This document shows, piece after piece, positions 1,511-36,588 of a DNA stretch of 64,000 nucleotides. Both the position numbers and the translations under genes were made by a program. Numbering within the stretch: position 1 is the first letter of the stretch; every line of letters starts with the position of its first letter. Below the pieces are notes generated by a model. The model searched no databases. It was given only the letters and a program-made list of their open reading frames with translations, and was not told the DNA's origin. Source of the stretch: Nitrososphaerota archaeon. Lineage in GTDB: Archaea; Thermoproteota; Nitrososphaeria_A; Caldarchaeales; Calditenuaceae. The stretch spans positions 41,199 through 105,198 of the forward strand of contig JAVQSZ010000005.1 of assembly GCA_033581555.1 (NCBI GenBank), in the 5' to 3' direction.

Positions 1511-3003
<1,493 letters not shown>

Positions 3004-12104: not shown

Positions 12105-12230
12105 CCCCCGGTAGCTCAGCCTGGTAGAGCGCCCGGCTGTAGGGTCAGGCCGTGGCCGTGGACCCGCCAGCCTACCAGGCCACACGACGCGGGGACCGGG
12201 TGGTCGCAGGTTCAAGTCCTGCCCGGGGGA
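12105..12230 (+). tRNA. tRNA-Tyr(GUA) with 52-nt intron after position 37
   Basis: Acceptor CCCCCGG/CCGGGGG, D-arm GCTC-AGCCTGGTA-GAGC, anticodon stem CCCGG/CCGGG with loop CUGUAG|intron(12143-12194)|A, T-arm GCAGG-TTCAAGT-CCTGC, C1:G72 and A73 (archaeal Tyr identity); no encoded CCA. Confidence 0.65.
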
Positions 12231-12330
12231 TTAGGTAACGCGCATATCCTGTTCCACAACTGGTGGTGGAGATCGAATAACGCCCAGTGAGTCATGTCCC
12301 TGTTGTTAGGAAATCAACCCATCACGTCAA

Positions 12331-12403
12331 GGCCGCGGGTGGGACTCGAACCCACGACCGCCGGGTCCACAGCCCGGAGTGCTGCCACTACACCACCGCG
12401 GCC
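12331..12403 (-). tRNA. tRNA-His(GUG)
   Basis: Minus-strand sequence G(-1)+GCCGCGG acceptor, anticodon loop CUGUGGA (GUG), T-arm GTGGG-TTCGAGT-CCCAC, discriminator C73 pairing with extra G-1 (His hallmark). Confidence 0.8.
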
Positions 12404-24199: not shown

Positions 24200-24349
24200 G
24201 CCGCTCCCTGTCTCGCGGACCTGGTTGATTAAGGTGGCGAGGCAAAGGTAAGGAAGCTGCCTCCCGATCGGGGATTACGGGCCCGATGCCTCATACGGAT
24301 ATCGCGCACTCCAGTTAAATACGGATCGAGGCGACGGCACGGGGGTAGG

Positions 24350-26092
24350 ATGGTCAAGGTCCACGGGCCGCTCGAGGAGGCGAGGCCTGCGCTGAGGAGG
24401 GTCTACGTCAGGGAGGTGGTGCTCGAGAACTTCATGTCGCACGAGTACAGCAGGGTCAGGGTCTCCAGAGGGATCAACCTGATCACCGGACCTAACGGCG
24501 CCGGGAAGTCCTCGATATTGCTCGGGATATCGGTCGCGCTGGGCCAGAGCTACACCGAGAGGGGCGAGAGGCTCGCGGACCTCATCAGGAGGGGCAGGGA
24601 CTCGGCGAGGGTATCGGTCGTGCTCGACAACTCGCCGGTCGACGGCGAGCGCCCCGTCAGGTCCATCCCGCTGGACACCATCACGATCACCCGTTACATC
24701 AAGAGGACCGGGGAGTACTGGCACTACGTCAACAACAGGTTCAGGACGAAGGCCGAGGTCGACCAGCTCCTCAGGTCGCTGGGGATCAACCCGAACAACC
24801 TCCTGATCGTGATGCACCAGAACATGATAGAGGAGTTCGCGGCCCGCGACGACTCCGAGAAGCTCAGGATGCTCGAGGACGCGGTCGGGCTATCCTCAAT
24901 GAGGGAGAGGATCCTGCAGGCTCAGGAGAGGCTCTCGTCCCTAATGGGCGAGGTGAACGCCGTGAGGAGGGCCCTCGAGGAGGCAGCGGCCGCCGTCGAG
25001 TACTGGAAGTCCGAGGTCGAGAAGCTCTCGAGGAAGAGGGAGCTCGAGTCGAGGAGGACGGCCCTTGAGCTGGAGTTCCTCTGGAGCCTCGCGAGGTCGA
25101 CCGAGCTCGCTGTGAGGAGGAAGTCGGAGCTGCTCGATCAGGTCAGGTCGGAGCTCTTTGGTCTCAGGGCCGAGGAGGCCGAGGTCTCCGAGACGCTGAG
25201 GTCGAGGAGGTCGGCGCTCGCGGAGCTGCTGAGGTCGGGAGGCGGCGACGTCGAGTCGGTCCTGAGGGAAGTCGACGGGCTGATCGAACTGGCGGCGCGG
25301 AGGGGCGTGATCGGGTACAGGATCGGCGAGCTGGAGAGGGAGGGCAGGGCCCTCGAGAGGGAGATCAGGGCCCTCGAGAGGGAGCTCGACGAGAGGGTCA
25401 GGGCCGCGTCGGAGAGGGGGCCGCGGGTCGAGACCGACCGGGAGCCCTCCGAGGTCCAGGAGGAGCTGAAGTTCGTCGCGCTCCAGCTCTCCTCGTTCGG
25501 GACCGTCGTCGGCGAGGCGGAGGAGATGTACTTCATGGCGGACTCGAAGTTCAGGAGCCTCCAGATCAGGGCCGAGGAGCTGGAGCAGAACGTCAGGAGG
25601 GCGCTCGAGGAGGTCGAGCACCGGAAGAGGGTCTGGAGGGAGAAGCTCGAGGAGCTGGTCAGCGAGGTCAACCCCGTCTACGATGAGATCCTCTCCAGCG
25701 TTGGAGGCACCGGCGCGATCAGGGTCAGGGGGCTCGAGGACCCGGCGACCGCGAGGCTCGAGCTCTACGCCGGCTTCAGGGGCAACCCGGCGACGCTCCT
25801 CGACGCGAGGGCCCACAGCGGCGGCGAGAGGGTGCTGGCGACGCTGGGCTTCCTACTCGCGGTCCAATCGAGGGTCAAGTCGCCCTTCAGGGCCGTCGAC
25901 GAGTTCGACGTCCACCTCGACCCGCTGAACAGGGAGAGGATGATGACGATGCTGCTCGAGACCGCCCGGAGGCACGGCGACGTCCAGTACATCATCATCA
26001 CGCCCGGCAGGGTCCCCGAGATGGAGGGCGTCAACCTGATCGTGGTCCAGAACGTCTCGGGCCGCTCCATCGTGACCGGTGGTCAGGGATGA
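24350..26092 (+). CDS. SMC-like ABC ATPase with short (about 250 aa) coiled coil
   Basis: 580 aa; N-terminal LENFMSHEY...ITGPNGAGKSSIL (Walker A), Q-loop-like VMHQN, long coiled coil, C-terminal signature HSGGERVLATL and Walker B VDEFDVHLD; no Zn-hook CxxC so not Rad50. Confidence 0.75.
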   Translation: MVKVHGPLEEARPALRRVYVREVVLENFMSHEYSRVRVSRGINLITGPNGAGKSSILLGISVALGQSYTERGERLADLIRRGRDSARVSVVLDNSPVDGERPVRSIPLDTITITRYIKRTGEYWHYVNNRFRTKAEVDQLLRSLGINPNNLLIVMHQNMIEEFAARDDSEKLRMLEDAVGLSSMRERILQAQERLSSLMGEVNAVRRALEEAAAAVEYWKSEVEKLSRKRELESRRTALELEFLWSLARSTELAVRRKSELLDQVRSELFGLRAEEAEVSETLRSRRSALAELLRSGGGDVESVLREVDGLIELAARRGVIGYRIGELEREGRALEREIRALERELDERVRAASERGPRVETDREPSEVQEELKFVALQLSSFGTVVGEAEEMYFMADSKFRSLQIRAEELEQNVRRALEEVEHRKRVWREKLEELVSEVNPVYDEILSSVGGTGAIRVRGLEDPATARLELYAGFRGNPATLLDARAHSGGERVLATLGFLLAVQSRVKSPFRAVDEFDVHLDPLNRERMMTMLLETARRHGDVQYIIITPGRVPEMEGVNLIVVQNVSGRSIVTGGQG

Positions 26093-26835
26093 GGCCGGTG
26101 GAGGTAAGGGTGGAGGAGCTGAGGAGGATGGCGGCGGCCCTCGAGTCGGTCCTCAGCATGAAGGTCGAGCCCTTCACCGTCAACGTCGCCTCGCTCCTCA
26201 GGAGGCTCAGGTCGATCGTCGAGGAGAGCAGGGACCTCGAGACGGTCGTCCTCGACGCCGAGGTCCTCTACAGGGTCTCGGTGGTCCTGGGGCTCCAGCA
26301 GAGGTACATCCTCCAGAGCGCCTCCTCACTCCTGATCGACTCCCAGCTGGTCGTCGCGAAGGTCCTCAGGTCCGAGCCCCACGAGCTCGCCGCGGCCCTC
26401 GTCTCGGCCTGGCGACCGATCGCGAGGGTCGAGCACGTCACCACACCCCTTCTCGTCAGGGCTTACGAACACTTCCTCTCGCTCCCGGGGAAGCCGGTGA
26501 GGATCGAGGCCGGGCTATCCGCCGAGGAGAGGGCTCCGGGATGGGAGGCCTACGAGGCCGCGTTCGAGGAGGAGCTGAGGTCGCTGAAGTCGGAGCTCGA
26601 GTCCGAGGGAGGCTGGGTCGACTACTGGGAGTTCGTCTCGAGGGAGGGCGAACGCCGGAGGGCCAGCAGGGCGTATCTCCTGAGCTTCCTCATCACCCGA
26701 GGCGAGATTGAGGTCCAGTACGACCCGCTCAGGGAGGAGATCAGGGTAATGGCCGCGACCGCCCCACAGCAGAGGAGGGAGGGCGACGTCCTCTCCCTGG
26801 TGATATCGCTGGGCCGGATGGGGCGGGGCGGCTGA
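26089..26835 (+). CDS. kleisin-like (ScpA-like) protein, translationally coupled to SMC-like gene
   Basis: 248 aa; ATGA stop/start overlap with upstream gene; helical N-terminus and C-terminal RAYLLSFLITRGEIEVQYDPLREEIRV resembling ScpA C-terminal winged-helix consensus (vtFLAiLEL...i.v.Q...f.dI.i). Confidence 0.4.
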   Translation: MRPVEVRVEELRRMAAALESVLSMKVEPFTVNVASLLRRLRSIVEESRDLETVVLDAEVLYRVSVVLGLQQRYILQSASSLLIDSQLVVAKVLRSEPHELAAALVSAWRPIARVEHVTTPLLVRAYEHFLSLPGKPVRIEAGLSAEERAPGWEAYEAAFEEELRSLKSELESEGGWVDYWEFVSREGERRRASRAYLLSFLITRGEIEVQYDPLREEIRVMAATAPQQRREGDVLSLVISLGRMGRGG

Positions 26836-26977
26836 GCGCTAGACCGGTCCATGGCCAATCTCTCGCCCTCTGGGCTTCACTTCCGGCAGGGTTGAGTACC
26901 GGGTCCACTTTCGGGGCGCACTCGGACTTTCGGGAGACCCTCCGTGAATTTCCAGGACCTCGGAGGCCTCAGGGCCG

Positions 26978-27259
26978 ATGGGCAGGACCGTCCCGACGTA
27001 CAGGCAGAGGCTCCTGGCCGAGCTCGAGAGGTGGAAGTGCTTCAGGTCCGCGCTCCTGAGGGACGAGAGGTATGACTTCGACAGGCTGGTGGACCAGGCC
27101 TTCTCCTACGTCCACGCGGGCTCGATGTGCCCCGAGAGGGAGGCGTTCGAGGTGCTGGTGATATCGCTGCTCCTCGCCCACGAGTCGAGGCTCAGGTCGC
27201 TCGAGGGGGCGGCCGGCGTGGAGGCTCCGAGGGTCGGCGCGAAGGGGCTTGATCGGTAG
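26978..27259 (+). CDS. hypothetical small helical protein
   Basis: 93 aa ORF between kleisin-like and PolB-like genes, 11-nt overlap with PolB-like start; no recognisable motifs. Confidence 0.3.
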   Translation: MGRTVPTYRQRLLAELERWKCFRSALLRDERYDFDRLVDQAFSYVHAGSMCPEREAFEVLVISLLLAHESRLRSLEGAAGVEAPRVGAKGLDR

Positions 27260-29432
27260 GCTGCTGGACCTGAACTTCACGCCCGACGGCGAGGCGGTCG
27301 AGCTCTGGCTCAGGCTCGGCGAGTCCGAGGTCGAGAGGGTCCGAGTCGAGTGGATGCCCTCGGTCTGCGCGGTAGGGCCCGGAGGCGCGCTCGAGGAGCT
27401 CGCGAGGGCGTTCTGTGAGCGCTCGGAGCTGGTGACGGCCTCCGAGGAGCCCGGGAGGGATCCCAGGCCGGCGTTGAGGATCAGGGCGAAGGCCTGGGAG
27501 AGGAGAGAGGTCGCGAGGCTTATCGAGTCGTCCTTCGGAAGGTCAGGAGTCAGGGTCTACGACGTCGACGTCCCGGCGCTCCAGCAGTTCCTCTATGAGC
27601 ACGGGCTCTTCCCGACCGCGCTGGTCGAGGTCTCCGGAGACCGGCTGAGGACCATCGACTCGAGGGAGGACGCGGACTACGACGTCTCGTGGGTCAGGGT
27701 CGCGGAGCTCGAAGTCTCGACGCGGCGAGGCTCAGCTTACCCGGGCCTCGACGAGCCCCTGGGTTCCGTGAGGCTGACCTCGAGGGAGGGGGAGGTGGAG
27801 CTGGACGGCGACGAGCCCGGCGTCCTCGAGGAGCTGATGAGGGCGGTGGAGCCCTTCGACGTGCTGTTGGTCAAAGGCGGCGACTCTTTCGCGATGCACT
27901 ACCTCCGCCACAGGGCGTCGGTGAACGGCGTCGAGCTCGAGCTGGGGAGGGAGAGGTCTCCGAGACCGAGGAGGGGCTCGAGGGCCTACTGGAGCTACGG
28001 CAGGGTCTACAGGAGGCACAGCGCCTTCAGGTTGAGGGGAAGGGTCCACGTCGACCCTCTCAACTCCTTCGTCTACTCCCACACGGGGCTCTTCGGCCTC
28101 CTCGAGGTCGCGAGGACCTGCGTAGTCCCGCTCCACGACGCCGCAAGGTACACGATCGGGCAGTGCATGACCTCCCTCCAGTTCGAGGTCGCGAGCAGGA
28201 GGAAAGCGCTGGTGCCCTGGAGGGCCGGGAGACCGCTCTACTTCACCCTCGGGGAGCTCAGCGTGATGGACAGGGGAGGACTCACGCTTGACCACAGACC
28301 CGGAGTCTACTGGGGAGTCGCGGAGGTGGACTTCCAGAGCATGTACCCGATGATCATCCTGACGAGGAACGTCAGCGCGGAGACCGTGAACTGCGGGTGC
28401 TGCGGCGGCCGCGGGACGCCGATCCCGGAGATAGGAGGCCACACCTGCTCGAGGAGGGTAGGGCTGGTCCCGGAGGCGATATCGCTCCCTCTCAGGAAGA
28501 GGCTCGCGTACAAGTCGATGCTTAGGGAGGGAAAGGGCGACCCGGAGGTCCTCAGGGCGAGGTCGGACGCGCTGAAGTGGGTACTCGTCTCCTCCTTCGG
28601 GTATCTGGGCTTCAGGAAGGCGAAGTTCGGGTCTAGGCTCGCCCACATGGCCGTCTGCGCCCACGCCAGGGACGCGCTGCTGAGGGCGGTAAGGGTCGCG
28701 GAGCGAATGGGCTTCGAGGTCGTCCACGGGATCGTCGACTCGCTCTGGGTCAGGAGGGAGGGTGCAGCCGAGGAGGATTACTCGGAGCTGGTGAGGGCGA
28801 TCGAAGAGGAGACCGGCCTGCCCGCGGCCCTCGAGGGGACCTACAGGTGGATCGCGTTCCTCCCCTCGAAGTCCTCCCCCCTCAGGCCCGTGAACGGGAG
28901 GTACTTCGGCTTCAGGACCGACGGCAGGGCCAAGTTCAGGGGGATTGAGGCGAGGAGGTCGGACACGCCGCCGCTGGTCGCGAGGATGCAGCTGGAGATG
29001 CTCGAAGTCCTCTCGAGGGTCGAAGCCCCGCAGGACCTGCCTGGAGCGGTGGAGGAGTGCTTCGGTGTGCTGAGGAGGTACGAGAGGGACCTGGTGCTGG
29101 GGAGGGTCGGAGTGGAGGACTTGGTGGTGACGGTGAGGCTCTCGAGGGACCCCTTCGGCTACTTCAACAGGGTCAGGCAGGCGGTCGCCGCGAGGAGGCT
29201 CCTGAGGATGGGCGTGGAGGTGGGGGCCGGGAGCGTCGTCAGCTACGTCGCCCTCGGGGACAGCTCCGCGCCCTACCCATCGGAGAAGCCCATAAGTCCG
29301 GCCTGTTGCTCGACGGAGTTCTACCTGAACGCGCTCAGAAGGGCCGCGGAGACGATCCTCTCGCCGCTGGTCCGTGCGGTCGCTGGGGCACGCGGCGGAC
29401 CAGTCCCCGTCAGGGCCTCAGCAACACCTTGA
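27249..29432 (+). CDS. family-B DNA polymerase-like protein with degenerate exonuclease motifs and altered motif C (PolB2/Dpo2-like)
   Basis: 727 aa; N-terminal LLDLNFTPDGEAVELWLRL like PolB N-domain; Pol motif A VDFQSMYPMIIL, motif B KWVLVSSFGYLG, motif C HGIVDS (canonical YGDTDS has lost first Asp); Exo I/II/III acidic residues not conserved (AELEV, GDSFAMHYL). Confidence 0.75.
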   Translation: MIGRLLDLNFTPDGEAVELWLRLGESEVERVRVEWMPSVCAVGPGGALEELARAFCERSELVTASEEPGRDPRPALRIRAKAWERREVARLIESSFGRSGVRVYDVDVPALQQFLYEHGLFPTALVEVSGDRLRTIDSREDADYDVSWVRVAELEVSTRRGSAYPGLDEPLGSVRLTSREGEVELDGDEPGVLEELMRAVEPFDVLLVKGGDSFAMHYLRHRASVNGVELELGRERSPRPRRGSRAYWSYGRVYRRHSAFRLRGRVHVDPLNSFVYSHTGLFGLLEVARTCVVPLHDAARYTIGQCMTSLQFEVASRRKALVPWRAGRPLYFTLGELSVMDRGGLTLDHRPGVYWGVAEVDFQSMYPMIILTRNVSAETVNCGCCGGRGTPIPEIGGHTCSRRVGLVPEAISLPLRKRLAYKSMLREGKGDPEVLRARSDALKWVLVSSFGYLGFRKAKFGSRLAHMAVCAHARDALLRAVRVAERMGFEVVHGIVDSLWVRREGAAEEDYSELVRAIEEETGLPAALEGTYRWIAFLPSKSSPLRPVNGRYFGFRTDGRAKFRGIEARRSDTPPLVARMQLEMLEVLSRVEAPQDLPGAVEECFGVLRRYERDLVLGRVGVEDLVVTVRLSRDPFGYFNRVRQAVAARRLLRMGVEVGAGSVVSYVALGDSSAPYPSEKPISPACCSTEFYLNALRRAAETILSPLVRAVAGARGGPVPVRASATP

Positions 29433-30369
29433 GCGTCCCTGGAGACGACGCGGACGCAAAGGCCTCCCTGTGCTCCTCGAGCCTGTGAACGGCGTCGACC
29501 AGCCTCCTGACGTCGACCAGTCCCCTCTCGAGCGCCCTGATGGCCGGCCTGAAGGGCCCGCACCTCGAGCCCACGACGTGGACTTCATCGACGACGACCT
29601 TCGCGAGGTCGATCCTGTAATCGGCTGCGATCGTCGACTTCAGGACCAAGTAGCCCCGCGGCCTGACGAGCTTCAGCGCGGTCGCCAACCCCTCCGCCCT
29701 CCCGGTGGCCTCGACCACGAGGTCGTAGGAGGACTCCTCGCCCGGGGCCACGCCCTCGACCGCGTCGATCCCGAGCTCTCTCAGCAACCCGACCTTCCTC
29801 CCGTGCTTCCCGATCACCCTCAGCCTCGAGACCCTGTCCCTCAAGACCTGAGCGATCAGGTTAGCGAGCCTCCCGTCGCCGACCACGCAGGCGCTCCAGC
29901 TGGGGTCGACATGGACCTGCTCGAGGACCTCGAAGGCCGCAGCGAGGGGCTCCACGAAGACCGCCCTCTCGTCTTCCACCGAGTCCGGGACCCTGTGGAG
30001 GTTCTCGACCGGGAGCCTCAGGTACTCCGCGAACGCACCGTCCCTTCCCTTGATCCCGAGGACCGTCCTGCTCCTGCAGTGCCTCCTCAGCCCTATCGAG
30101 CACATGTCGCACCTTCCGCAGGCGGCGTTGATCTCGCCCACCACCCTCGCGCCCACGAGGTCGCTCCTGTCAGACTCGACCACCTCGCCGACGAACTCGT
30201 GCCCCGGCACCCCCTTGAAGCCCGCGTAGCCCTTGAGTATCTGGAGGTCGGTGCCGCATATCCCTGCGAGCCTGACTTTGATCAGCACCTCCCCGTCCCG
30301 CTCGACCCTATGGTCCTCGACGAGCCTGATCTCCCTGCCGTTGAAGTAGAGGGCCCTGCACTCCACCAT
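29410..30369 (-). CDS. zinc-dependent alcohol/threonine dehydrogenase (MDR family)
   Basis: GICGTDLQ...GHEFVGEV, structural Zn CGRCDMC, Rossmann VVGDGRLANLIAQVL. Confidence 0.8.
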   Translation of the reverse strand: MVECRALYFNGREIRLVEDHRVERDGEVLIKVRLAGICGTDLQILKGYAGFKGVPGHEFVGEVVESDRSDLVGARVVGEINAACGRCDMCSIGLRRHCRSRTVLGIKGRDGAFAEYLRLPVENLHRVPDSVEDERAVFVEPLAAAFEVLEQVHVDPSWSACVVGDGRLANLIAQVLRDRVSRLRVIGKHGRKVGLLRELGIDAVEGVAPGEESSYDLVVEATGRAEGLATALKLVRPRGYLVLKSTIAADYRIDLAKVVVDEVHVVGSRCGPFRPAIRALERGLVDVRRLVDAVHRLEEHREAFASASSPGTLKVLLRP

Positions 30370-30370
30370 C

Positions 30371-31168
30371 TCAGATCACGTGCGGGAAGACGACGCCGTA
30401 ACCGTTCAGCCTCAGGTAGACCGAGAACGCCGCGAGGAAGAGGACCGTCGCGGTGAAGGCCGCGTCCCTGGCCCTGAACCTCAGGTCCAACAGGTAGCTC
30501 CTCTTCGCCGTCGGGACGAAACCCCTCGACTCAATCGCGAGCGGCAGCTCCCCGAACCTCCGCATCGTCGTGATGAAGAGCGGCACGATGACCGCCGCGG
30601 AGTTCCTCATCCTCGAGAAGACGTTGCCCTTGACCAGGTTGACGCCCCTCGCCCTCTGGGCAGCGAGAATCGTCAGTCCGTCACCGACCATCGCTGGGAT
30701 GAACCTGAAGACCGCGGAGACCCCGAAGGCCATCGAATAGGGCATCCCGAGCTTCGTCAGCGCGAGCTCCAAGTCCTCGATCCTCGAGGTGGTGAGGAGC
30801 AGGAGGCCCGAGAGGACCATCGCGACGAGCCTGAAGGCGACCGCGAGGGCGTACATCACCGACTCCTGCGTGAACGTTACCCCCGCGAGCTGAATGAGGA
30901 CCGTCTCTCCGCCCCTCCTGAAGAGCGGCCAGAGGACCAGGCTCATGACTGCCAGCGAGACTAGCCCAAACCAGAACATCTTCAGCCTCGAGGCGACTCC
31001 AGACGCAAGGACCATCGCGAGCACCGCAGCCAAGACGGTCCCCGTGTAGAGCGGGTGGTTGAAGACCGAGGACCAGACGAAGACGCAGACGACGAACGCG
31101 ATCTTCGCCCTAGGGTCGAGGGAGTGGAAGAAGCTCCGGCCCTCGACGTAAAGGATGTACTTCGTCAC
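30371..31168 (-). CDS. ECF transporter transmembrane (T) component (CbiQ/EcfT)
   Basis: 265 aa, 5-6 TM, CbiQ-like; directly downstream of duplicated ECF ATPase. Confidence 0.7.
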   Translation of the reverse strand: MTKYILYVEGRSFFHSLDPRAKIAFVVCVFVWSSVFNHPLYTGTVLAAVLAMVLASGVASRLKMFWFGLVSLAVMSLVLWPLFRRGGETVLIQLAGVTFTQESVMYALAVAFRLVAMVLSGLLLLTTSRIEDLELALTKLGMPYSMAFGVSAVFRFIPAMVGDGLTILAAQRARGVNLVKGNVFSRMRNSAAVIVPLFITTMRRFGELPLAIESRGFVPTAKRSYLLDLRFRARDAAFTATVLFLAAFSVYLRLNGYGVVFPHVI

Positions 31169-31169
31169 C

Positions 31170-32849
31170 TCAGCCCACCTCCACGTGCTCTAAGAACTCC
31201 CTCGGCGTGAGGAGCGTCACGCCCGCCACCCTCCTCGAGAGCTCGCAGGTCTCCGGCGGGAAGATGTCGTGCTGCGCCAGGAGCTCGGCGTTGGAGAAGG
31301 CGACCCTCGTCGGAGCGTCGAGGACGATCCGGCCGTCGGCCATCATGACGGTCCTCGTGCAGTACTCGGCCACGACCCACATCTCGTGGGTTATGGTGAT
31401 GACCGTCGTCCCAGCCCTGTTCAGGTTGAGCACCGTGTTCATCAGGGCCCTCGTCTCGCCGGGCGAGAGGCCGGTCGTGGGCTCGTCGAGGATGACGACC
31501 CTTGGGTTCAGGGCCAGTATCGAGGCGACCGCGACCCTCTGCCTCTCGCCCTTCTGAAGGAAGAACGGGTCCTCGTTGAGGAGGCGCGTTATCCCCATCA
31601 TCTCCGCGACCTCCCTAACCCTCCTGTCAACTTCGGCCTCGCTGAGGCCCCTTGCCCTGAGGCCGTACGCAAGCTCCTCGTAGACCGTCTGCGAGAATAT
31701 CTGGTAGTCGGGGTTCTGGAAGATGTACCCGACGTCCTTAGCCCTCTCGGAGACGTCCTCCGCCGTCGCGTCCCTCCCGAAGATCCTCACCCTGCCCCTC
31801 TTCGGCCTCAGGATCCCCATGATCACCTGAGCGAGCGTAGTCTTCCCGCTCCCGTTCTGCCCGATCAGCGCCAGCATCTCTCCCTGGTGGACCCTGAAGT
31901 CAACGCCCTTCAGGACCCAGTTCTGGCCATCGTAGGCGAACCAGACGTCCTCGAGCTCCACGGCGAGGCCGTCGCCCGGGGCAGGCCTCTCCTCCGGCGT
32001 CCTCACCCTCTTGACCCTAGGGAAGACCCGCAGGGCCTCGTCGAGCAGAACAGGGACCGAGTTGCTCCTGACCCTCATGTCCCAGCAGATCTCCGCGACC
32101 TCCGGCGGCTTCAGCCCAAGCGACCTGAGCTCCTCGACCATCCCTAGTACCTCCTTCGCATCCCCCTCCACCGCCACCTTGCCGTCGACCAAAAGGATGA
32201 CCCTGTCTGCGAACTCCGCGACCTTCTCGAGGCGGTGGTCGACCAAGACCAGCGATTTGATCACCTCCTCGTCCAGCAGCCTCCTCATCACGTCGTAGAC
32301 CTCCCTCTTCCCCCTCGGGTCGAGGTCGCTCGTGGCCTCGTCGAGTATCAGGACCGAGGGCTGCAGCGAGAGCAGCGAGGCTATCGCGAGCCTCTGCTTC
32401 TGCCCCCCACTGAGCGCGAACGAGTACCTCTTCTCTAAGCCCGTGAGCCCCACGAGGTCCAGGGCCCACTTGACCCTCCTCCTGATCTCCTCCCTCTCAA
32501 GTTGGAGGTTCTCCGGCCCGAAGGCGACCTCAAGCTCGACGGTCGTCCTGAAGAGCTGGACCTCGTAGTCCTGCATCACCATCGCGCAACTCTTGCTGAT
32601 CTCCCCGACCCGCTTAGACGTCGTCACCTCCCCGTACACCCTCGCCTCTCCCCTGAAGTCGTCGTAGACGCCCATGTTAGGTATCAGGCCGGCCATCACC
32701 TTGCAAAGGGTCGTCTTGCCGGCGCCCGTGGGCCCGATGATCGCAACGACCTCGCCCTCCGAGACCTCAGCGCTGACGCCCTTTAGCGCGTAGTCGTTCG
32801 AGCCGCGGTACTTCACCCAGACGTCCCTTACCTCGACGGCCTTCACCAT
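31170..32849 (-). CDS. ECF transporter fused tandem ATPase (EcfA1-EcfA2 / CbiO duplicated)
   Basis: 559 aa with two ABC cassettes: GPTGAGKTT...LSGGQKQR...ILDEATSDLD and GQNGSGKTT...LQKGERQR...ILDEPTTGL. Confidence 0.85.
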   Translation of the reverse strand: MVKAVEVRDVWVKYRGSNDYALKGVSAEVSEGEVVAIIGPTGAGKTTLCKVMAGLIPNMGVYDDFRGEARVYGEVTTSKRVGEISKSCAMVMQDYEVQLFRTTVELEVAFGPENLQLEREEIRRRVKWALDLVGLTGLEKRYSFALSGGQKQRLAIASLLSLQPSVLILDEATSDLDPRGKREVYDVMRRLLDEEVIKSLVLVDHRLEKVAEFADRVILLVDGKVAVEGDAKEVLGMVEELRSLGLKPPEVAEICWDMRVRSNSVPVLLDEALRVFPRVKRVRTPEERPAPGDGLAVELEDVWFAYDGQNWVLKGVDFRVHQGEMLALIGQNGSGKTTLAQVIMGILRPKRGRVRIFGRDATAEDVSERAKDVGYIFQNPDYQIFSQTVYEELAYGLRARGLSEAEVDRRVREVAEMMGITRLLNEDPFFLQKGERQRVAVASILALNPRVVILDEPTTGLSPGETRALMNTVLNLNRAGTTVITITHEMWVVAEYCTRTVMMADGRIVLDAPTRVAFSNAELLAQHDIFPPETCELSRRVAGVTLLTPREFLEHVEVG

Positions 32850-32933
32850 GGGACGGCCATCAATCCTCTCGCCCTAAAGATATACGCTGAGAGCTGACGG
32901 GTACAGGTTGAGAGGGACCGAAAAATTCGGGCT

Positions 32934-33746
32934 TCAGTCCTTCGCCAGCAGCGCCATCCCGACCGCGAAGATAAGGATGAAGACGCCGCCAACCGTCAGG
33001 AGGGGCGCGCCCGCGAAGACCGGTGCGAACTGCAGCAGCGGCTGGCCTAGCCCCACACCGACCAGTATCGTGACCCAGGTGCCCACGACGCCCGCGACGA
33101 AGACCAACGCGGTCCCGATCCTGTGATAGGACTTGACCTCCGACGGAGTGTACTGGTAACCCTTCATCACGTCGGTCCAGAGCCAGCCCGCCCTCTTCGC
33201 CCTCGGGTAGACGAGGGCCATCAGGATCGGGGCGATGATGCCCGCAGAGATCAACTCGTTGAAGAAGATGATGAACGCGAGGAAAGTGAACGGCACGAAC
33301 CCGACCAGCTCGGTCCAGTAGGGGATTATCAGCGCGACGACTCCCGAGTGCACCAGTATCACGAACTCGTACTTCAGGAGGCTCGAGAGCGTCCTGCAGT
33401 GCGGCTCCTCCCTGAAGACCCTGTGCCAGATCTTGTAAGGCACGAGCCCGAGGAAGAAGTTCCCGATGAACCCGCCGATGCTCCCGATCGTCAGCGCCCC
33501 GCCCAATATGTCGAAGCCTATCAGGTTCCCCACGGCCGAGCCCCACGCAGCCGCCGGCCCGAAGAGCAGGCTGGTGAACGGAGGTATCGCGTTGCCAGGC
33601 CTTATCGCGGTGACGCCAGGAATGATCCATATCGGGAGCGCCGCGAAGACGAAGAGCAGCGCGGCGTAGAGTCCTGCGGAGACGACGAACGCCGTGATCA
33701 TCTGCGTGTAGCGCCACATCGTGAAGATTTCCCTCATGACGTCCAT
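32934..33746 (-). CDS. putative ECF transporter substrate-specific (S) component
   Basis: About 270 aa from internal Met MDVMREIF (ORF extends to 33836); 6-7 TM with Gly-rich helices (GSAVGNLIGFDILGG, GSIGGFIGNFFLG) typical of S components; first gene of ECF operon. Confidence 0.5.
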   Translation of the reverse strand: MDVMREIFTMWRYTQMITAFVVSAGLYAALLFVFAALPIWIIPGVTAIRPGNAIPPFTSLLFGPAAAWGSAVGNLIGFDILGGALTIGSIGGFIGNFFLGLVPYKIWHRVFREEPHCRTLSSLLKYEFVILVHSGVVALIIPYWTELVGFVPFTFLAFIIFFNELISAGIIAPILMALVYPRAKRAGWLWTDVMKGYQYTPSEVKSYHRIGTALVFVAGVVGTWVTILVGVGLGQPLLQFAPVFAGAPLLTVGGVFILIFAVGMALLAKD

Positions 33747-33859
33747 GATCGCTCGACTCGGTATAAAACAGTTCCGACGCGTGGCTCGCCAAGTAAAATC
33801 AGCCCGAGGCGCAGAGACGCAACACGGCTTCGACACGCGACGGCCCGGTCGCGGTTGTT

Positions 33860-33992
33860 CGCCAGCTCTAATCTTAAATATGAAACAAAAGCTTTAAATC
33901 AACGTCCCATGAGGATTTGAAGTGTGCGTATATGTAGTTTATATAATCTATATGCAATATTTAAATCTGAACCAAAAACCTCTATTACAGCC
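33860..33992. promoter_or_regulatory. strongly AT-rich divergent promoter region (ECF operon on minus, crenactin locus on plus) with multiple TATA-like boxes
   Basis: About 130 nt at greatly reduced GC versus flanks: ...ttaaatatgaaacaaaagctttaaatc...atatgtagtttatataatctatatgcaatatttaaatc... Confidence 0.35.
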
Positions 33993-34196
33993 ATGGCGGT
34001 GGTGCAGAACCAGGTCAGGAAGGAGGAGAAGGTCGTCACGAGGAGGAGCTATGCGGCCGGCTACAGGTACTGCTCGAGGTGCAGGGTCTACCACCTGACC
34101 GACAGCGTGAGGTGCCCATACTGCGGGATCCTCCTGAGGAACTCGCCTAGGAAGAAGAAGCCGGTGGACCCATCGAAGTACGTCAGGATCGAGTGA
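33993..34196 (+). CDS. small zinc-ribbon protein (C-x2-C-x12-C-x2-C) with basic C-terminal tail
   Basis: 67 aa from Met at 33993 (ORF track starts 33924 in AT-rich DNA); CSRCRVYHLTDSVRCPYCG; 76 nt upstream of crenactin. Confidence 0.5.
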   Translation: MAVVQNQVRKEEKVVTRRSYAAGYRYCSRCRVYHLTDSVRCPYCGILLRNSPRKKKPVDPSKYVRIE

Positions 34197-34272
34197 GCTC
34201 AAGCTGAGCTGGGCGGCAACGGACCGAAGAGCCCGATAAGCTATTAGACGACCTGGGCCTCCCCCCAGCGGA

Positions 34273-35538
34273 GTGTGGGAGGAGGAGTACAAGCGGAGGT
34301 ACGTCTTCGCCGCCGATTACGGGACCAGCGACTACAAGTACGGGCCGATAACGCTCGGCGAGCGGCCGCAGGTCATCGAGAACAGGGGCTACTTCCCGGA
34401 GCCCTCGATCGTCTCGAGGATAATGGGCGTCGAGAGGGAGGTCGTCGTGGGCAAGGACGTCGTGCTCTTCCTCGAGAGCGGCGCGGACTTGCTGAGCAGG
34501 ATGGTTTACCCTATGAGGAGCGGGATCGTGGGCAAGGACGACGCGAGGGCATGGAAGGTGATAAGGGAGCTGACGAGGGCCTCACTGGAGGAGTTCAGGC
34601 CGAAGGGCGTGGGGTTCAACGGGTTTTACGTCGTCGCGGCGCTCTCCGCGGTCGCACCGAGGTACATGTACGAGCGGCTCTTCGAGGTCCACTCCGAGCT
34701 CGCGAAAGAGGGACTGGTCCACTCCTCGACGATCATACCGCAGCCCCTCGCCGTCGCCATCGCCCACAAGGCGACCTCATGCGTCGTCGTGGAGAGCGGG
34801 CACGGAAACACCCAGGTCACGCCGATCTCGAGGGCCCCGATCAGGGGAGCAGTCGTGGCCCTGAACAGAGGAGGGGCCGACGCGAACGCGATTACCGCGG
34901 AGATCCTCAAGGACGCGGGGTACGGCGACCTCGCGAAGGAGGAGGCGCTCGTGAGGAGGGTGAAGGAGCACCTCGGCCTGCTTCCGCTCGACTTGGACCG
35001 CGCGGTCTCCTTCGCGAGGTCGAACCCCTCCCTAGTCCATAAGGCGATCAAGGTCCCGGGGACCAGGATCAGGATCGACCTCGGAGAGAACTCTTGGGCG
35101 AGGTTCCTGATCGGCGAGTACGTCTTCGACCCGAACAAGGAGGTCTTCGAGAGCTACTTCAAGCGCGGGATGCCCAGGCCGAAGGACGTGAAGTTCGGCG
35201 ACACGGTCTTCTACGGCACCACAACGGTGGCCGACGCGATCATCTCCGCGGTCGAGAAGTGCCCGGTGGAGCTCCAGCCTTACCTCTACTCGCAGATCAT
35301 CCTCTCGGGAGGGAACCTTTCGTGGTCGGTCCCGCAGGAGCTGAGGGGCGTGGCCTCTGACGCGGCCGCCAGGGTCAAGAAGGACCTCTCGGAGAGGGGA
35401 GTGGAGAACGTCAACGTCAGGTCCTCCGAGGAGCCCCAGTTCACGGTCTGGAGGGGCTGCATAGTCTTCGGGTACTCGGTCCCCGCGAACTATGAGTGGT
35501 CCTGGGAGAGGATGGAGGGATGGATGAGGTTCAGGTGA
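34273..35538 (+). CDS. crenactin (archaeal actin homolog)
   Basis: 421 aa; actin-fold phosphate-1 VFAADYGTSDYKYG, GIVGKDDARAWKVIREL, phosphate-2 VVESGHGNTQVTPI, adenosine motif IILSGGNLSWSVPQEL; size matches crenactin (about 430 aa). Confidence 0.85.
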   Translation: MWEEEYKRRYVFAADYGTSDYKYGPITLGERPQVIENRGYFPEPSIVSRIMGVEREVVVGKDVVLFLESGADLLSRMVYPMRSGIVGKDDARAWKVIRELTRASLEEFRPKGVGFNGFYVVAALSAVAPRYMYERLFEVHSELAKEGLVHSSTIIPQPLAVAIAHKATSCVVVESGHGNTQVTPISRAPIRGAVVALNRGGADANAITAEILKDAGYGDLAKEEALVRRVKEHLGLLPLDLDRAVSFARSNPSLVHKAIKVPGTRIRIDLGENSWARFLIGEYVFDPNKEVFESYFKRGMPRPKDVKFGDTVFYGTTTVADAIISAVEKCPVELQPYLYSQIILSGGNLSWSVPQELRGVASDAAARVKKDLSERGVENVNVRSSEEPQFTVWRGCIVFGYSVPANYEWSWERMEGWMRFR

Positions 35539-35544
35539 GGCCTT

Positions 35545-36588
35545 TTGGGGTGCGACGTGCTCTTCGACGTCCTTACACCGAAGCAAGCCCTCTTCTTCTG
35601 GGCCGTAGGCCGAGAGCTCGAGGCCCGAGGGATCGAGGTCTCCTACGTCGCTAGGGACTACGAGCAGCTGGACTGGGTCGAGCGCGAGCTTCGGCTCGGG
35701 GCCCTGAAGGTAGGGAGGTTCGGCGGGGAGGGGCTCGAGGGGAAGCTGGTCGCGAGCACCGAGAGGCAGGCGGCCCTCATCGATGTCCTCAAGGAGCTCA
35801 GACCGAAGATCGCGGCCTCGAGCGGGTCGATCGAGCTCTGCAGGGTCGCCTACGGACTCGCGGTCAGGCACTACCTCGCCTCCGACACGCCCCACTCGCC
35901 GGTGAACAGGGTCTGCGTCCCGCTCTCCGACCTCGTCGCGACTCCCCGCTACATCCCAGTCTCGGAGTGGAGGAGGTGGGCAACTCCCTCGACCAGGTTC
36001 CTGAGGTACAGGGCCCTCGACCCGATCGCGTGGATCAGGAGGCTGGAGGGCCCGGTGAGTCGTAGTGCGGGGAGGAGGTACGTCCTCGTCAGGCCGCCGG
36101 AGAGGAAGGCGAGCTACCTCAGATCGGGTGGTCTGGAGGAGACCTCGGCGGTGATCCGGGCCCTCAGATCCAACTACGAAGGCGAGGTGCTGGTGGTCGC
36201 GAGGTACAGGGACGACGCCTCCCAACTCTCGGGGGTCTCCGGAGACCGGGTGAAGGTGTTGAACGAGCCGACGCTACTGCTGCCGCTGATCGCCGGCGCC
36301 GACGCGGTCTTCTCGGGCGGCGGAACCACGGCCCAAGAGGCCGCACTGCTCGGCGTCCCTACATTCACCTTCTACCCCGGCGAGATACCTGCAGTCCACA
36401 GGTTCCTGATCAGGAGGGGGCTGCTGAAGGAGGTAGACCCTGAAAAGCGTTCGATTGCGGCGGCGATCGAGCTCGCGATGGAGTCCGGGTTCCGAAGGAG
36501 GCTGATGGAGAGGGCGAGGAGGCTGAGGGGCTCAATGGAGGACCCCGCTGAGGCCCTCGCGAACGCTATTGCGGCTGGACTGGAGTAG
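35545..36588 (+). CDS. DUF354-like GT-B-fold protein (glycosyltransferase/epimerase-like)
   Basis: 347 aa; C-terminal Rossmann GADAVFSGGGTTAQEAALLGVPTFTF as in MurG/2-epimerase GT-B C-domains; 6 nt downstream of crenactin. Confidence 0.55.
   Translation: MGCDVLFDVLTPKQALFFWAVGRELEARGIEVSYVARDYEQLDWVERELRLGALKVGRFGGEGLEGKLVASTERQAALIDVLKELRPKIAASSGSIELCRVAYGLAVRHYLASDTPHSPVNRVCVPLSDLVATPRYIPVSEWRRWATPSTRFLRYRALDPIAWIRRLEGPVSRSAGRRYVLVRPPERKASYLRSGGLEETSAVIRALRSNYEGEVLVVARYRDDASQLSGVSGDRVKVLNEPTLLLPLIAGADAVFSGGGTTAQEAALLGVPTFTFYPGEIPAVHRFLIRRGLLKEVDPEKRSIAAAIELAMESGFRRRLMERARRLRGSMEDPAEALANAIAAGLE

Follow-up and report, generated by a model that had tools for sequence, protein, structure and literature searches.

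Four co-directional plus-strand genes in a 64-kb stretch of archaeal DNA (64,000 nucleotides; hereafter the window) most probably represent two autonomous and already described archaeal modules, which a lineage-specific rearrangement would have juxtaposed head to tail. Module A (24350-26835) codes for the SMC and kleisin subunits of an archaeal SMC5/6-related complex, and module B (26836-29432) is the PPB2-PolB2 unit of the PolB2 'mutasome' (Table 1). Both kinds of module are known, and it is their side-by-side placement that is specific to the lineage.

Layout of the Locus

The SMC and kleisin genes overlap by 4 nt (ATGA stop/start), a gap of 142 nt separates the kleisin gene from the PPB2 gene, and the PPB2 and PolB2 genes overlap by 11 nt; the ORF calls reproduce the four-gene, same-strand string described in an earlier note on this DNA. 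In all four ORFs GC3 is 0.90-0.95 (0.95 in PPB2) and GC2 is 0.42-0.50, similar to the remaining genes of the window. Judged by the usual archaeal promoter layout, the element TTAAATA, about 30 nt 5' of the SMC start codon, is a putative promoter of the SMC-kleisin unit.

Table 1. Features of the locus, from ORF listing, translation and the evidence named (positions are those of the window)
Feature	Position	Strand	Basis
TATA-box-like element TTAAATA upstream of SMC	24314..24320	+	Read from sequence
SMC5/6-related SMC ATPase, short, predicted hinge-less, 580 aa, ATG start	24350..26092	+	Profiles, AlphaFold2, HR02 ortholog
Nse4-related kleisin, 248 aa, ATG start	26089..26835	+	Profile, Foldseek, synteny, HR02 ortholog
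Spacer with conserved PPB2-PolB2 upstream region	26836..26977	+	Box conservation among relatives
ATGGCCAAT in spacer	26851..26859		
First AC(T/A)T(T/C)C box	26879..26884		
Second AC(T/A)T(T/C)C box, ACTTTCGG	26907..26914		
Third AC(T/A)T(T/C)C box, ACTTTCGG	26926..26933		
TATA-like GAATTTC	26946..26952		
PPB2 (partner of PolB2, arCOG07300 / Pfam DUF8156), 93 aa, ATG start	26978..27259	+	MGRT motif, position, ortholog domain
PolB2 (Dpo2-type family-B translesion polymerase), 727 aa, TTG start	27249..29432	+	Profiles, motif alignment
Crenactin-like actin	34273..35538		NCBIfam crenactin model

A Short SMC5/6-Related ATPase

The translation of the first gene contains Walker A (GPNGAGKSS), Q-loop (MHQNM), signature (SGGER) and Walker B (VDEFD) motifs, and its 580 residues include no cysteine, so there is no zinc hook. 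In the AlphaFold2 model (pLDDT 86), the head carries a single antiparallel coiled coil, approximately residues 182-420, which is closed by a 5-residue turn at 296-300 and has no hinge; the top Foldseek match is 5xei, an SMC head with coiled coil and joint. Translation and model bear out the earlier description of an SMC-like protein with these four motifs, a short coiled coil and no zinc hook. The architecture is thus predicted to be hinge-less. The 84 homologs span 569-673 aa, and alignment places the surplus of the longer proteins in an insertion at the coiled-coil tip.

Pfam SMC_N matches the protein at 2e-32, and its best PDB sequences are Smc5 and Smc6 (4e-36 with a single-sequence query). 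The family profile ranks yeast Smc5 (8e-51) and SMC6 (1e-44) before archaeal Smc (1.7e-32) and has in common with Smc5 the motif QYxxITP, which lies where, we presume, the H-loop histidine of other SMCs would be expected. Furthermore, the ortholog in Calditenuaceae archaeon HR02 (locus L012; 58% identical) is the gene BEHE01000017.1_4, named 'SMC5/6-related SMC' in Suppl. Table 3 of a preprint (van Hooff et al., bioRxiv 10.1101/2024.01.07.573240). By profile E-values and the phylogeny of that preprint, the 580-aa protein is SMC5/6-related.

Eukaryotic Smc5/6-Nse4-Nse1/Nse3 complexes (e.g. PDB 7qcd, 7tve, 8i4x, 9lwi) are the closest in sequence to SMC and kleisin alike and follow the same logic of a kleisin with tandem winged-helix kites, but their ~1,100-aa SMCs have long arms and a hinge and pair as an Smc5-Smc6 heterodimer, whereas the window has one 580-aa SMC gene, whose product presumably acts as a homodimer. 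The extra eukaryotic subunits and domains (Nse2 SUMO ligase, Nse5/6, Nse1 RING domain) were not seen beside the window genes. In architecture only, RecN and Rad50/SbcC are comparable, having an antiparallel coiled coil on an ABC-type head and likewise lacking the SMC hinge, and RecN is close in overall size; however, the window SMC scores far under the cut-offs of the RecN and Rad50 NCBIfam models and lacks the zinc hook of Rad50/SbcC, whose partner is Mre11 and not a kleisin and kite. Term searches found no discussion of a hinge-less ~580-aa architecture in the main texts of the two papers that describe the archaeal SMC5/6-related operon, and coiled-coil columns are stated there to have been removed before tree building (Yoshinaga & Inagaki, 2021, PMC8665677; van Hooff et al., bioRxiv 10.1101/2024.01.07.573240).

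An Nse4-Related Kleisin and Its Missing Kite

The 248-aa protein begins with a helical domain and ends in a winged helix, and the middle region between them is conserved. Its single sequence found no match in Pfam or PDB, but a profile of 31 diverse orthologs matches human NSE4/EID3 (9lwi_D, 7.5e-5) and yeast Nse4 (7ymd_A, 1.7e-4), with only 0.38 for ScpA. In a Foldseek search with a low-confidence model (pLDDT 57), kleisins come out on top, with Nse4 first (7qcd_F, 3e-3), followed by the C-terminal winged helices of ScpA, Rad21 and Scc1. In 79 of 81 loci the kleisin gene comes after the SMC gene, and the HR02 ortholog has been named 'Nse4-related kleisin' (van Hooff et al., bioRxiv 10.1101/2024.01.07.573240). 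Profile and fold search together uphold the proposal that this protein is kleisin-like.

The pair had also been proposed to be distinct from canonical SMC-ScpAB, which holds and can be put more exactly as an SMC5/6-related SMC with an Nse4-related kleisin. The SMC-ScpA-ScpB complex is likewise built from SMC, kleisin and kite, and the ScpA C-terminal winged helix (4i99_C) matches the kleisin model (pLDDT 57) with an rmsd of 3.6 A over 68 columns; the window SMC, however, lacks the hinge, is about half the length and reaches 175 bits against TIGR02169 (cut-off 729), and the kleisin profile prefers Nse4 (~1e-4) over ScpA. HR02 has a condensin/cohesin-related operon apart from its SMC5/6-related one (van Hooff et al., bioRxiv 10.1101/2024.01.07.573240).

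The archaeal SMC5/6-related operon, found in TACK lineages and some Asgard and Euryarchaeota, a distribution that the window family matches, contains a kite gene (PMC8665677; bioRxiv 10.1101/2024.01.07.573240). The third gene of relatives gives repeated sub-threshold MAGE and Nse1 matches, all at the C-terminal winged helix, and its best PDB profile match is a MAGE domain (E = 0.06). The HR02 trio, orthologous to the window genes, maps onto BEHE01000017.1_4, _3 and _2 of Suppl. Table 3, the third being named an Nse1/3-related kite (van Hooff et al., bioRxiv 10.1101/2024.01.07.573240). In the window, no kite gene was found in the operon or across the whole 64 kb, and PPB2-PolB2 occupies its position after the kleisin. 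The earlier note had not recognised the 93-aa ORF as PPB2 and had overlooked the missing kite gene at this position.

In the proposed complex, each SMC would consist of an ABC-type head and a coiled-coil hairpin of ~100 residues per strand, and two such heads would engage on ATP. The Nse4-type kleisin would bridge them: its N-terminal helices would contact one neck, and its C-terminal winged helix the other cap. Its middle region, presumed to bind kites as in other kleisins, would carry Nse1/3-type kites as a dimer. Such an assembly would act as a small clamp on DNA at the heads and not as a large hinge-closed ring. Within the middle region, W108 and P110 are invariant among the 31 orthologs, and its continued conservation suggests that a kite partner is still present elsewhere.

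PADLOC returns generic SMC-head matches (mad3, 6e-32; LmuB, 8e-18; JetC, 1e-6), and Wadjet likewise joins SMC, kleisin and kite. Membership of the pair in a Wadjet (JetABC)- or Lamassu-type system of defence against phages or plasmids is nevertheless very improbable: PADLOC has no match for kleisin, kite or PPB2, its SMC scores are well under those to Smc5/6, and no JetD- or LmuA-type nuclease was seen beside the genes. At least 536 species-level genomes from many phyla have the operon in a housekeeping context, unlike the patchy, island-type spread usual for defence systems; its annotated conserved neighbour clusters are Lhr, M54 peptidase, NAD kinase and a PIN-domain protein.

The PPB2-PolB2 Unit

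PPB2-PolB2 has been described as a separate operon, and the PolB2 mutasome as PolB2 (Dpo2), PPB2 (arCOG07300) and iRadA (Timinskas et al., 2025, PMC11791011; Feng et al., 2020, 2022). The 93-aa protein begins with MGRTVPTYR and so has the N-terminal arm published for PPB2, 'MGRT' with Arg3 and Arg9 (PMC11791011), and its L003 ortholog carries PF26485 DUF8156. In the window and in six of six metagenome relatives, the PPB2 gene immediately precedes PolB2 and overlaps with it.

The 727-aa protein matches Pfam DNA_pol_B (8e-18) and reaches 341 bits against NCBIfam NF004416, below the cut-off of 516; its exonuclease domain is under the Pfam threshold (E = 0.05). The TTG start fits a published PolB2 N-terminus (MISGWLFD versus IGRLLD after the initiator in the window). 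Alignment with P. abyssi PolB shows an intact motif A (DFQSMYP), KWVLVSSFGY as motif B and a motif C (HGIVDS) that has lost its first Asp. Exo II has Ala at the catalytic position (GGDSFA), as does the aligned P. abyssi chain (NGDNFA), a position that is normally Asp in family-B polymerases. The assignment to the PolB2/Dpo2 type is supported by profiles, motif alignment and a published table, in which ALKWVLVSSFGYLGF and HGIVDSLWV match the 'IVD' PolB2 rows. The accompanying claim, that the Exo I, II and III acidic residues and one motif-C Asp are lost, stands for motif C, for the decay of the exonuclease domain and for the Ala at Exo II, while for Exo I and Exo III, both unalignable to P. abyssi PolB, we infer a loss.

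PolB2 is an exonuclease-decayed family-B polymerase with IVD replacing DxD, as published for PolB2 (Timinskas et al., 2025, PMC11791011), and PPB2 is its small helical partner, whose MGRT arm reportedly inserts next to the polymerase. A conserved D(K/R) loop of PolB2 is said to contact PPB2 (PMC11791011), and D341-R342 of the window protein would fit this loop. The unit is probably damage-inducible. No iRadA gene adjoins the pair in the window or in its six closest metagenome relatives, the sole RadA paralog of the 64-kb window being 23 kb away, and Orc1/Cdc6, SRAP and DUF72 genes were not seen beside the window pair.

Gene Order and Spacer across Genomes

Gene order was compared in 64 informative species-level loci, each with at least 3 kb of sequence behind the kleisin gene. 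Behind the kleisin lies a kite gene in 62, PolB2 in one (L007, the closest species representative to the window) and neither in one. PolB2 behind the kleisin is confined to the window, L007 (SMC 94% identical) and L003/L004/L005/L008 (SMC 85% identical); beyond the window, two further species-level genome groups retain the SMC-kleisin-PPB2-PolB2 order, and the arrangement is at least tolerated. In six PolB2 relatives (62-64% identity), neither SMC nor kleisin genes lie within 6 kb of PPB2-PolB2. Across related genomes the SMC-PolB2 linkage is not conserved but confined to one narrow hot-spring lineage.

The spacer contains ATGGCCAAT, three AC(T/A)T(T/C)C boxes, of which the latter two read ACTTTCGG, and a TATA-like GAATTTC. 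The window has a single pair of ACTTTC boxes at a distance of 8-20 nt, where 0.01 such pairs would be expected. The boxes are unchanged in two sister genomes and are also kept upstream of PPB2 in L090-L092 (PolB2 62-64% identical), where the gene upstream of them is a divergent acyl-CoA dehydrogenase. The region with ACTTTCGG-type boxes would be the promoter region of PPB2-PolB2 itself, and the simplest reading of boxes kept where SMC is absent is that PPB2-PolB2 moved with its own promoter. As a lead, the boxes may resemble the Sulfolobus Orc1-2 element, ANTTTC (PMC6061795). The suggested SMC-kleisin-polymerase module is not supported as a conserved unit: 62 of 64 loci have the kite instead, PPB2-PolB2 has been described as a separate operon, and these upstream elements are kept whatever the upstream gene.

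A simple scan, not designed for archaeal oligo-T terminators, found no terminator-like site in the spacer, and with co-directional genes and only 142 nt between them, read-through co-transcription is possible. It is unlikely, however, that all four genes work in this lineage as a single functional operon, in which an SMC5/6-type clamp would be co-expressed and work with PolB2 at damaged or stalled forks and PPB2-PolB2 would replace kite and Lhr. Such an operon would be consistent with the shared strand, overlaps and short spacer, with the order kept in the window, L007 and L003/L004/L005/L008, and with a kite missing exactly at the PPB2-PolB2 site. A functional link is not absurd: both modules plausibly handle DNA damage, as eukaryotic Smc5/6 does, and a repair-type Lhr helicase gene adjoins the SMC operon in 40 of 64 related loci, often convergent and behind the kite. 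Against this, the order occurs outside the window in only one of the 64 species-level loci, the same boxes precede PPB2-PolB2 where SMC is absent, the conserved kleisin middle region points to a kite elsewhere, and published models of the PolB2 complex need PPB2 and iRadA but no SMC (PMC11791011). If two autonomous modules were juxtaposed, the chromosome would have been broken right behind the kleisin gene in the window lineage, leaving the kite gene elsewhere in the genome or lost.

Crenactin Follows PolB2

A crenactin-like actin is encoded 7.4 kb downstream (NCBIfam crenactin model 559 bits, E = 5e-168, slightly below the cut-off of 630). The earlier note had considered the SMC-like and kleisin-like proteins as arcadin-4/arcadin-3-type partners of this cytoskeleton, and arcadin-4 is itself an SMC/Rad50-superfamily protein (Yoshinaga et al., 2022). 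The two proteins match Smc5/6 and Nse4 instead, and the NCBIfam arcadin-4 model reaches only 31 bits (cut-off 860), over residues 20-94, the N-terminal P-loop. Four opposite-strand genes separate PolB2 from crenactin in the window and, among the SMC loci, with up to 8 kb of available sequence on each side, the window and L003 are the only ones in which crenactin was found next to SMC. The synteny already contradicts the arcadin reading, to which we give the least credence of all: in relatives, crenactin lies directly behind PolB2 where SMC is absent, so its proximity follows PolB2 and not SMC.

Two gene modules in one co-directional string

ORF calling and translation recovered, in exactly the layout that the earlier note had described, four co-directional ORFs, here assigned to an SMC protein, a kleisin, the 93-aa protein PPB2, and the family-B polymerase PolB2 (genes 1–4). 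Genes 1 and 2 overlap by 4 nt, with an ATGA common to both, a spacer of 142 nt separates genes 2 and 3, and the end of gene 3 shares 11 nt with gene 4. Each of the four has a GC3 of 0.90–0.95 and a GC2 of 0.42–0.50, similar to those of other genes in the window (GC content 65%), and the 93-aa ORF is therefore a real gene. The host belongs to the Caldarchaeales ("Aigarchaeota") and stands near Calditenuaceae; with the SMC proteins of MAG DT_Bin_10 and Calditenuaceae SKYB46, its own shares 94% and 85% identity, respectively.

The SMC–kleisin pair (module A) and the PPB2–PolB2 pair (module B) are both of known kinds; the novelty lies in the new members and in their lineage-specific juxtaposition. 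One partner gene of each module is not adjacent here, namely the kite (an Nse1/3-type protein normally encoded after the kleisin) and iRadA (an ATPase-dead RadA partner of PolB2 without the N-terminal domain). The exotic-looking "SMC + kleisin + dead polymerase" operon consists of two families described in 2021–2025, and its linkage should not be carried forward as if it were a novel repair module; genes that databases label "AAA family ATPase" and "hypothetical protein" can now be given clean names.

Features of the window, with positions and supporting remarks
Feature	Position	Strand	Remarks
16S rRNA gene	1514-3003	-	complete, archaeal; 1445 bits
RadA/RadB-like protein	3290-3997	+	235 aa, without N-terminal domain
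tRNA match	12105-12230	+	126 nt; Rfam match not called by ARAGORN
tRNA-His (GTG)	12330-12403	-	next to the 126-nt tRNA match
Gene 1, SMC	24350-26092	+	580 aa (ORF calling)
Gene 2, kleisin	26089-26835	+	248 aa
Conserved region upstream of PPB2	26851-26952		boxes shared with PolB2 relatives
Gene 3, PPB2	26978-27259	+	93 aa
Gene 4, PolB2	27249-29432	+	727 aa, TTG start
Actin homolog, divergent Caldarchaeales crenactin	34273-35538	+	NCBIfam crenactin equivalog, 559 bits, just under the cut-off of 630

A predicted hinge-less SMC with a Smc5/6-like head

Gene 1 encodes an SMC-superfamily ATPase, as indicated by a Pfam SMC_N match at 2e-32. The Walker A, Q-loop, signature, and Walker B motifs reported in the earlier note are all present and intact in the translation, and the protein contains no cysteine. 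Its scores are far under the NCBIfam cut-offs for SMC, Rad50, RecN, ASRP, and arcadin-4. An identity as Rad50 or RecN was rejected on these scores, and a canonical condensin was likewise rejected for genes 1 and 2 (TIGR02169, 175 bits vs a cut-off of 729; TIGR02168, 135 vs 567).

Searching PDB sequences with the single sequence gave Smc5 and Smc6 as the best matches (4e-36). A family profile of 19 sequences, run against PDB sequences, returned the same ranking of Smc5/6 above canonical SMC (Smc5, 8e-51; SMC6, 1e-44 to 1e-42; archaeal Smc, 1.7e-32; SMC2/3, ~1e-23), with QYLLITP of the gene 1 family aligned to QYFLITP of Smc5. Judged by sequence, the gene 1 head is closer to Smc5/Smc6 than to canonical SMC or SMC1–4. 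SMC5/6-related archaeal SMCs were first reported in TACK lineages (Yoshinaga and Inagaki, 2021, PMC8665677), and the SMC–kleisin–kite trio is already published (van Hooff et al., bioRxiv 10.1101/2024.01.07.573240). Supplementary Table 3 of the latter lists BEHE01000017.1_4, _3, and _2 of Calditenuaceae archaeon HR02 as a SMC5/6-related SMC, a Nse4-related kleisin, and a Nse1,3-related kite. Locus mapping showed that these are the SMC, kleisin, and kite of the HR02 locus retrieved here (L012), whose SMC is 58% identical to that of the window, and gene 1 is therefore an ortholog of a published SMC5/6-related member.

The AlphaFold2 model of gene 1 (pLDDT 86) consists of a head and a helix (residues 182–295) that is followed by a 5-residue turn and by returning helices (301–356, 366–382, and 390–449). 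SMC proteins in the strict sense (SMC, SMC1–6) have a central dimerisation domain, the hinge, with a long coiled-coil arm on either side; this model shows none, and its top Foldseek match is the engineered "Smc head with coiled coil and joint" (5xei). The 84 retrieved homologs come from a wide range of archaeal phyla, Hodarchaeaceae among them, and have lengths of 569–673 aa (median 585), whereas eukaryotic Smc5/6 proteins have ~1,100 aa; in the alignment, the additional residues of the longer homologs form an insert at the tip of the hairpin of coiled coil. From these lengths and alignments, the SMC5/6-related family looks uniformly hinge-less. Term searches found no discussion of a hinge-less architecture in the main text of van Hooff et al. 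or of Yoshinaga and Inagaki, and the sole find of a literature search on "hinge-less" SMC was an actinobacterial ocean clade.

Module A, whose SMC is hinge-less and has arms of only ~100 residues in each strand, would be unable to form a large ring closed by a hinge as canonical SMCs do. Most likely, it would act as a homodimeric head clamp in which the ATP-engaged heads are bridged by the kleisin, and a kite dimer may sit on the conserved middle region of the kleisin, where W108 and P110 are invariant in 31 orthologs. The SMC5/6-related archaeal family is thought to be sister to eukaryotic Smc5/6. If hinge-lessness holds clade-wide, it matters for the way in which the Smc5/6 ancestor gripped DNA and for the point in evolution at which hinge and long arms were gained or lost. 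Structural studies would also have a practical target in such a minimal, thermophile-derived clamp.

A Nse4-type kleisin and its usual neighbours

Single-sequence searches of Pfam, its ScpA family included, of NCBIfam, and of PDB gave no match to gene 2, and a 10-sequence kleisin profile gave nothing useful. A word-indexed protein search returned 10 and then 16 relatives, none with Pfam domains, so that by this route the family could be tied neither to ScpA nor to Nse4 and the alignment behind the structural model could not be deepened. Nse4 was reached solely with a profile of 31 diverse multi-phylum orthologs, chosen from the orthologs of 80 genomes. This profile matched human NSE4/EID3 (7.5e-5) and yeast Nse4 (1.7e-4) over the C-terminal winged helix, aligning AYLLSFLIxxG of the family to FYTSFLIKEG of Nse4. 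The structural model of gene 2 is of low confidence (pLDDT 57) and shows three N-terminal helices and a C-terminal winged helix, with Nse4, ScpA-C, Rad21, and Scc1-C as the best Foldseek matches. Because the profile matches Nse4 and the top Foldseek matches are kleisins, we conclude from these comparisons that gene 2 encodes a kleisin of the Nse4 type.

The earlier note had described the partner of the SMC as having a ScpA-like winged helix. Its kleisin nature stands on the profile and Foldseek searches, while the ScpA family falls away (E = 0.38 with the 31-sequence profile, vs ~1e-4 for Nse4). A lack of structural similarity of the 248-aa protein to kleisins, which by the note would refute its reading, is not what we found, kleisins dominating the top Foldseek matches. 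The proposal that the pair is distinct from canonical SMC–ScpAB agrees with the TIGR02169 and TIGR02168 scores under cut-off and with the preference of the kleisin profile for Nse4.

In a genome scan, at least 536 species-level genomes carried a homolog of the SMC. The best 80 of these belong to Caldarchaeales, Methanomethylicia, Hadarchaeota, Hodarchaeaceae (Asgard), Thermofilales, Bathyarchaeota, Hydrothermarchaeota, and Nitrososphaerales, and in nearly all of the 80, HMM and phmmer mapping gave the order SMC, kleisin, and then a third gene of ~200 aa. This third gene follows the kleisin at 62 of the 64 loci with at least 3 kb of sequence beyond the kleisin. Its product gives repeated sub-threshold matches to MAGE and Nse1, all at one C-terminal winged helix, and its top PDB profile match is a MAGE domain (E = 0.06), which together argue for a Nse1/3-type kite. 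No kite homolog was found in the 64-kb window, where the best tblastn E-value was no better than 0.2 and an HMM search returned nothing. A Thermofilaceae MAG (L079) provides the sole other locus with enough downstream sequence and no kite, and PolB2 is not present there either.

A Lhr-type helicase gene (~950 aa, with DEAD, Helicase_C, WH_Lhr, and DEAD_assoc domains) occurs at 40/64 loci in several phyla, for example at 11358-14171 in L002 and 11185-14742 in L053. It is mostly convergent with the kite gene, abutting it within a few tens of nucleotides. No Lhr homolog was found in the window, and a literature search returned nothing relevant on a link between Lhr and SMC. The interest of the locus lies chiefly in the hinge-less SMC5/6-type family and its Lhr neighbour rather than in the polymerase linkage: all SMC members retrieved have ~570–670 aa, the modelled one is hinge-less, and the gene is very often tail to tail with that for the helicase. 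A defence system of the Wadjet/Lamassu type would be expected to show subunit-specific matches for SMC, kleisin, and kite and to have a nuclease partner. PADLOC matches were to the generic SMC head only, with none for the kleisin or kite, and no nuclease was seen in the conserved neighbourhood, so that we consider this identity very unlikely.

PPB2 and a PolB2 polymerase

Aligned to P. abyssi PolB, gene 4 has DFQSMYP as motif A, KWVLVSSFGY as motif B, and HGIVDS as motif C, the last showing the loss of an aspartate that the earlier note had pointed out. The note had also claimed that Exo I, II, and III are lost; the alignment has an alanine at the catalytic position of Exo II (GGDSFA), and the exonuclease domain as a whole has decayed to the point of being hardly detectable (Pfam E = 0.05). 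In a published survey (Timinskas et al., 2025, PMC11791011), most PolB2 proteins are without the first Asp of DxD, the exonuclease domain is decayed, and a tight linkage joins polB2 to the genes for PPB2 (arCOG07300) and iRadA. The motif strings of gene 4 match the PolB2 rows of that survey, in which "IVD" sequences include ALKWVLVTSFGYLGF, HAIVDSIWV, and HGIVDSIWV, which supports the assignment to the PolB2/Dpo2 type. The window lineage is absent from the survey tables.

The defining features of PPB2 are a conserved "MGRT" arm at the N-terminus and the residues Arg3 and Arg9 (PMC11791011). The 93-aa ORF begins with MGRTVPTYR, an N-terminus that is almost invariant in six orthologs (Thr4 is Asn in three), and its ortholog in the close relative L003 carries Pfam DUF8156. 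Module B thus resembles the PolB2 mutasome in the replaced first Asp of DxD, the decayed exonuclease, and the adjoining PPB2 with its MGRT arm, and would represent the catalytic core of such a translesion "mutasome". It differs in that no iRadA gene was found beside PPB2–PolB2, the neighbourhood covered being 10 kb for L003 and 6 kb for six metagenomic PolB2 relatives (L087–L092). The RadA/RadB-like protein of the window lies 23 kb from PPB2–PolB2 and has GEEKSGRTS as Walker A, with Arg for Lys and GRT instead of GKT; the RadB model TIGR02237 scores 62 bits against a cut-off of 172. From its sequence, either of two identities would fit, that of the iRadA partner of PolB2 or that of a RadA paralog unconnected with the polymerase.

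The linkage is confined to one narrow lineage

PPB2–PolB2 sits behind the kleisin solely in the window and at the loci L007 (SMC 94% identical) and L003, L004, L005, and L008 (85%), and the kite is missing in these same SMC loci. The next relatives, including Calditenuis fumarioli (71%) and HR02 (58%), have the kite and no PolB2. A metagenome scan with PolB2 returned six loci of 62–64% identity, with PPB2 directly upstream in 6/6, preceded by a divergent acyl-CoA dehydrogenase gene, and with no SMC, kleisin, or kite within 6 kb. The SMC–kleisin–polymerase module proposed in the earlier note is not supported as a conserved unit by these comparisons, 62/64 loci having a kite after the kleisin and the PolB2 linkage being limited to one narrow lineage.

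The 142-nt spacer in front of PPB2 is likewise conserved. In two sister genomes, it retains ATGGCCAAT, three boxes of the form AC(T/A)T(T/C)C, and GAATTTC as a TATA-like element. The conserved region of the window and positions ~5600-5730 of L090–L092 have in common ATGGCCAA, three spaced boxes of the AC(T/A)TTCG type, and GA(A/T)(T/A)TC as the TATA-like element. The same region is thus kept upstream of PPB2 in PolB2 relatives of 62–64% identity, behind different upstream genes, and by this sequence conservation the spacer is not neutral. The SMC gene has a TTAAATA of its own ~30 nt upstream. The conserved boxes and this element indicate two predicted transcription units, genes 1–2 and genes 3–4, between which read-through may occur. 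A scan for sigma-70 promoters and intrinsic terminators was uninformative for an archaeon.

A pair of ACTTTC sites 8–20 nt apart occurs once in the window, vs 0.01 expected. In Sulfolobus, Orc1-2 activates damage-response genes via ANTTTC, and activation of dpo2 is also Orc1-2-dependent (PMC6061795). The ACTTTCGG-type boxes resemble this element, and damage-inducible expression of PPB2–PolB2 is suggested as a lead only. A third ACTTTCGG box, at 2807, was considered as a promoter for the RadA paralog and rejected; it is treated as chance because it lies inside the 16S rRNA gene.

We regard a coupled operon of SMC–kleisin and PPB2–PolB2 as unlikely. In this Calditenuaceae-related lineage, a rearrangement would have taken the kite and Lhr genes away from the hinge-less SMC5/6-type SMC–kleisin pair and set the putatively damage-responsive PPB2–PolB2 in their place. 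That read-through from the SMC promoter, or a physical contact, then couples the two is quite unlikely. If coupling were true, a SMC5/6-type clamp, possibly in a kite-less complex, would work directly with a translesion polymerase in an archaeon, a precursor to the part that eukaryotic Smc5/6 plays under replication stress.

Crenactin accompanies PolB2

In the PolB2 relatives whose sequence suffices, crenactin lies downstream of PolB2, separated from it in L091 by a 71-aa ORF and followed in L092 by DUF354 (region 8254-10956 of L091 and L092). Near SMC genes, crenactin was found solely in the window and L003, within the sequence available. Crenactin proximity therefore goes with PolB2 and not with the SMC. 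The earlier note had suggested that the SMC and kleisin are arcadin-3/arcadin-4-like partners of crenactin. This reading is scarcely credible, as the arcadin-4 model (NF053563) scores 31 bits vs a cut-off of 860 and crenactin accompanies the SMC in those two loci alone. Four minus-strand genes lie between PolB2 and crenactin (window 29410-36588), identified by orthology with L003 as alcohol dehydrogenase, CbiQ, a double ABC ATPase, and QueT. A 90-aa ORF before crenactin shows faint similarity to zinc-ribbon proteins (RpoP, Nop10).

Stable RNA genes

The rRNA genes appear unlinked, since the 1.5 kb downstream of the 16S gene contains protein-coding ORFs (a nitroreductase and one unknown) and Rfam found no 23S gene in the window. 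The 126-nt tRNA match, by its sequence, is probably an intron-containing tRNA.
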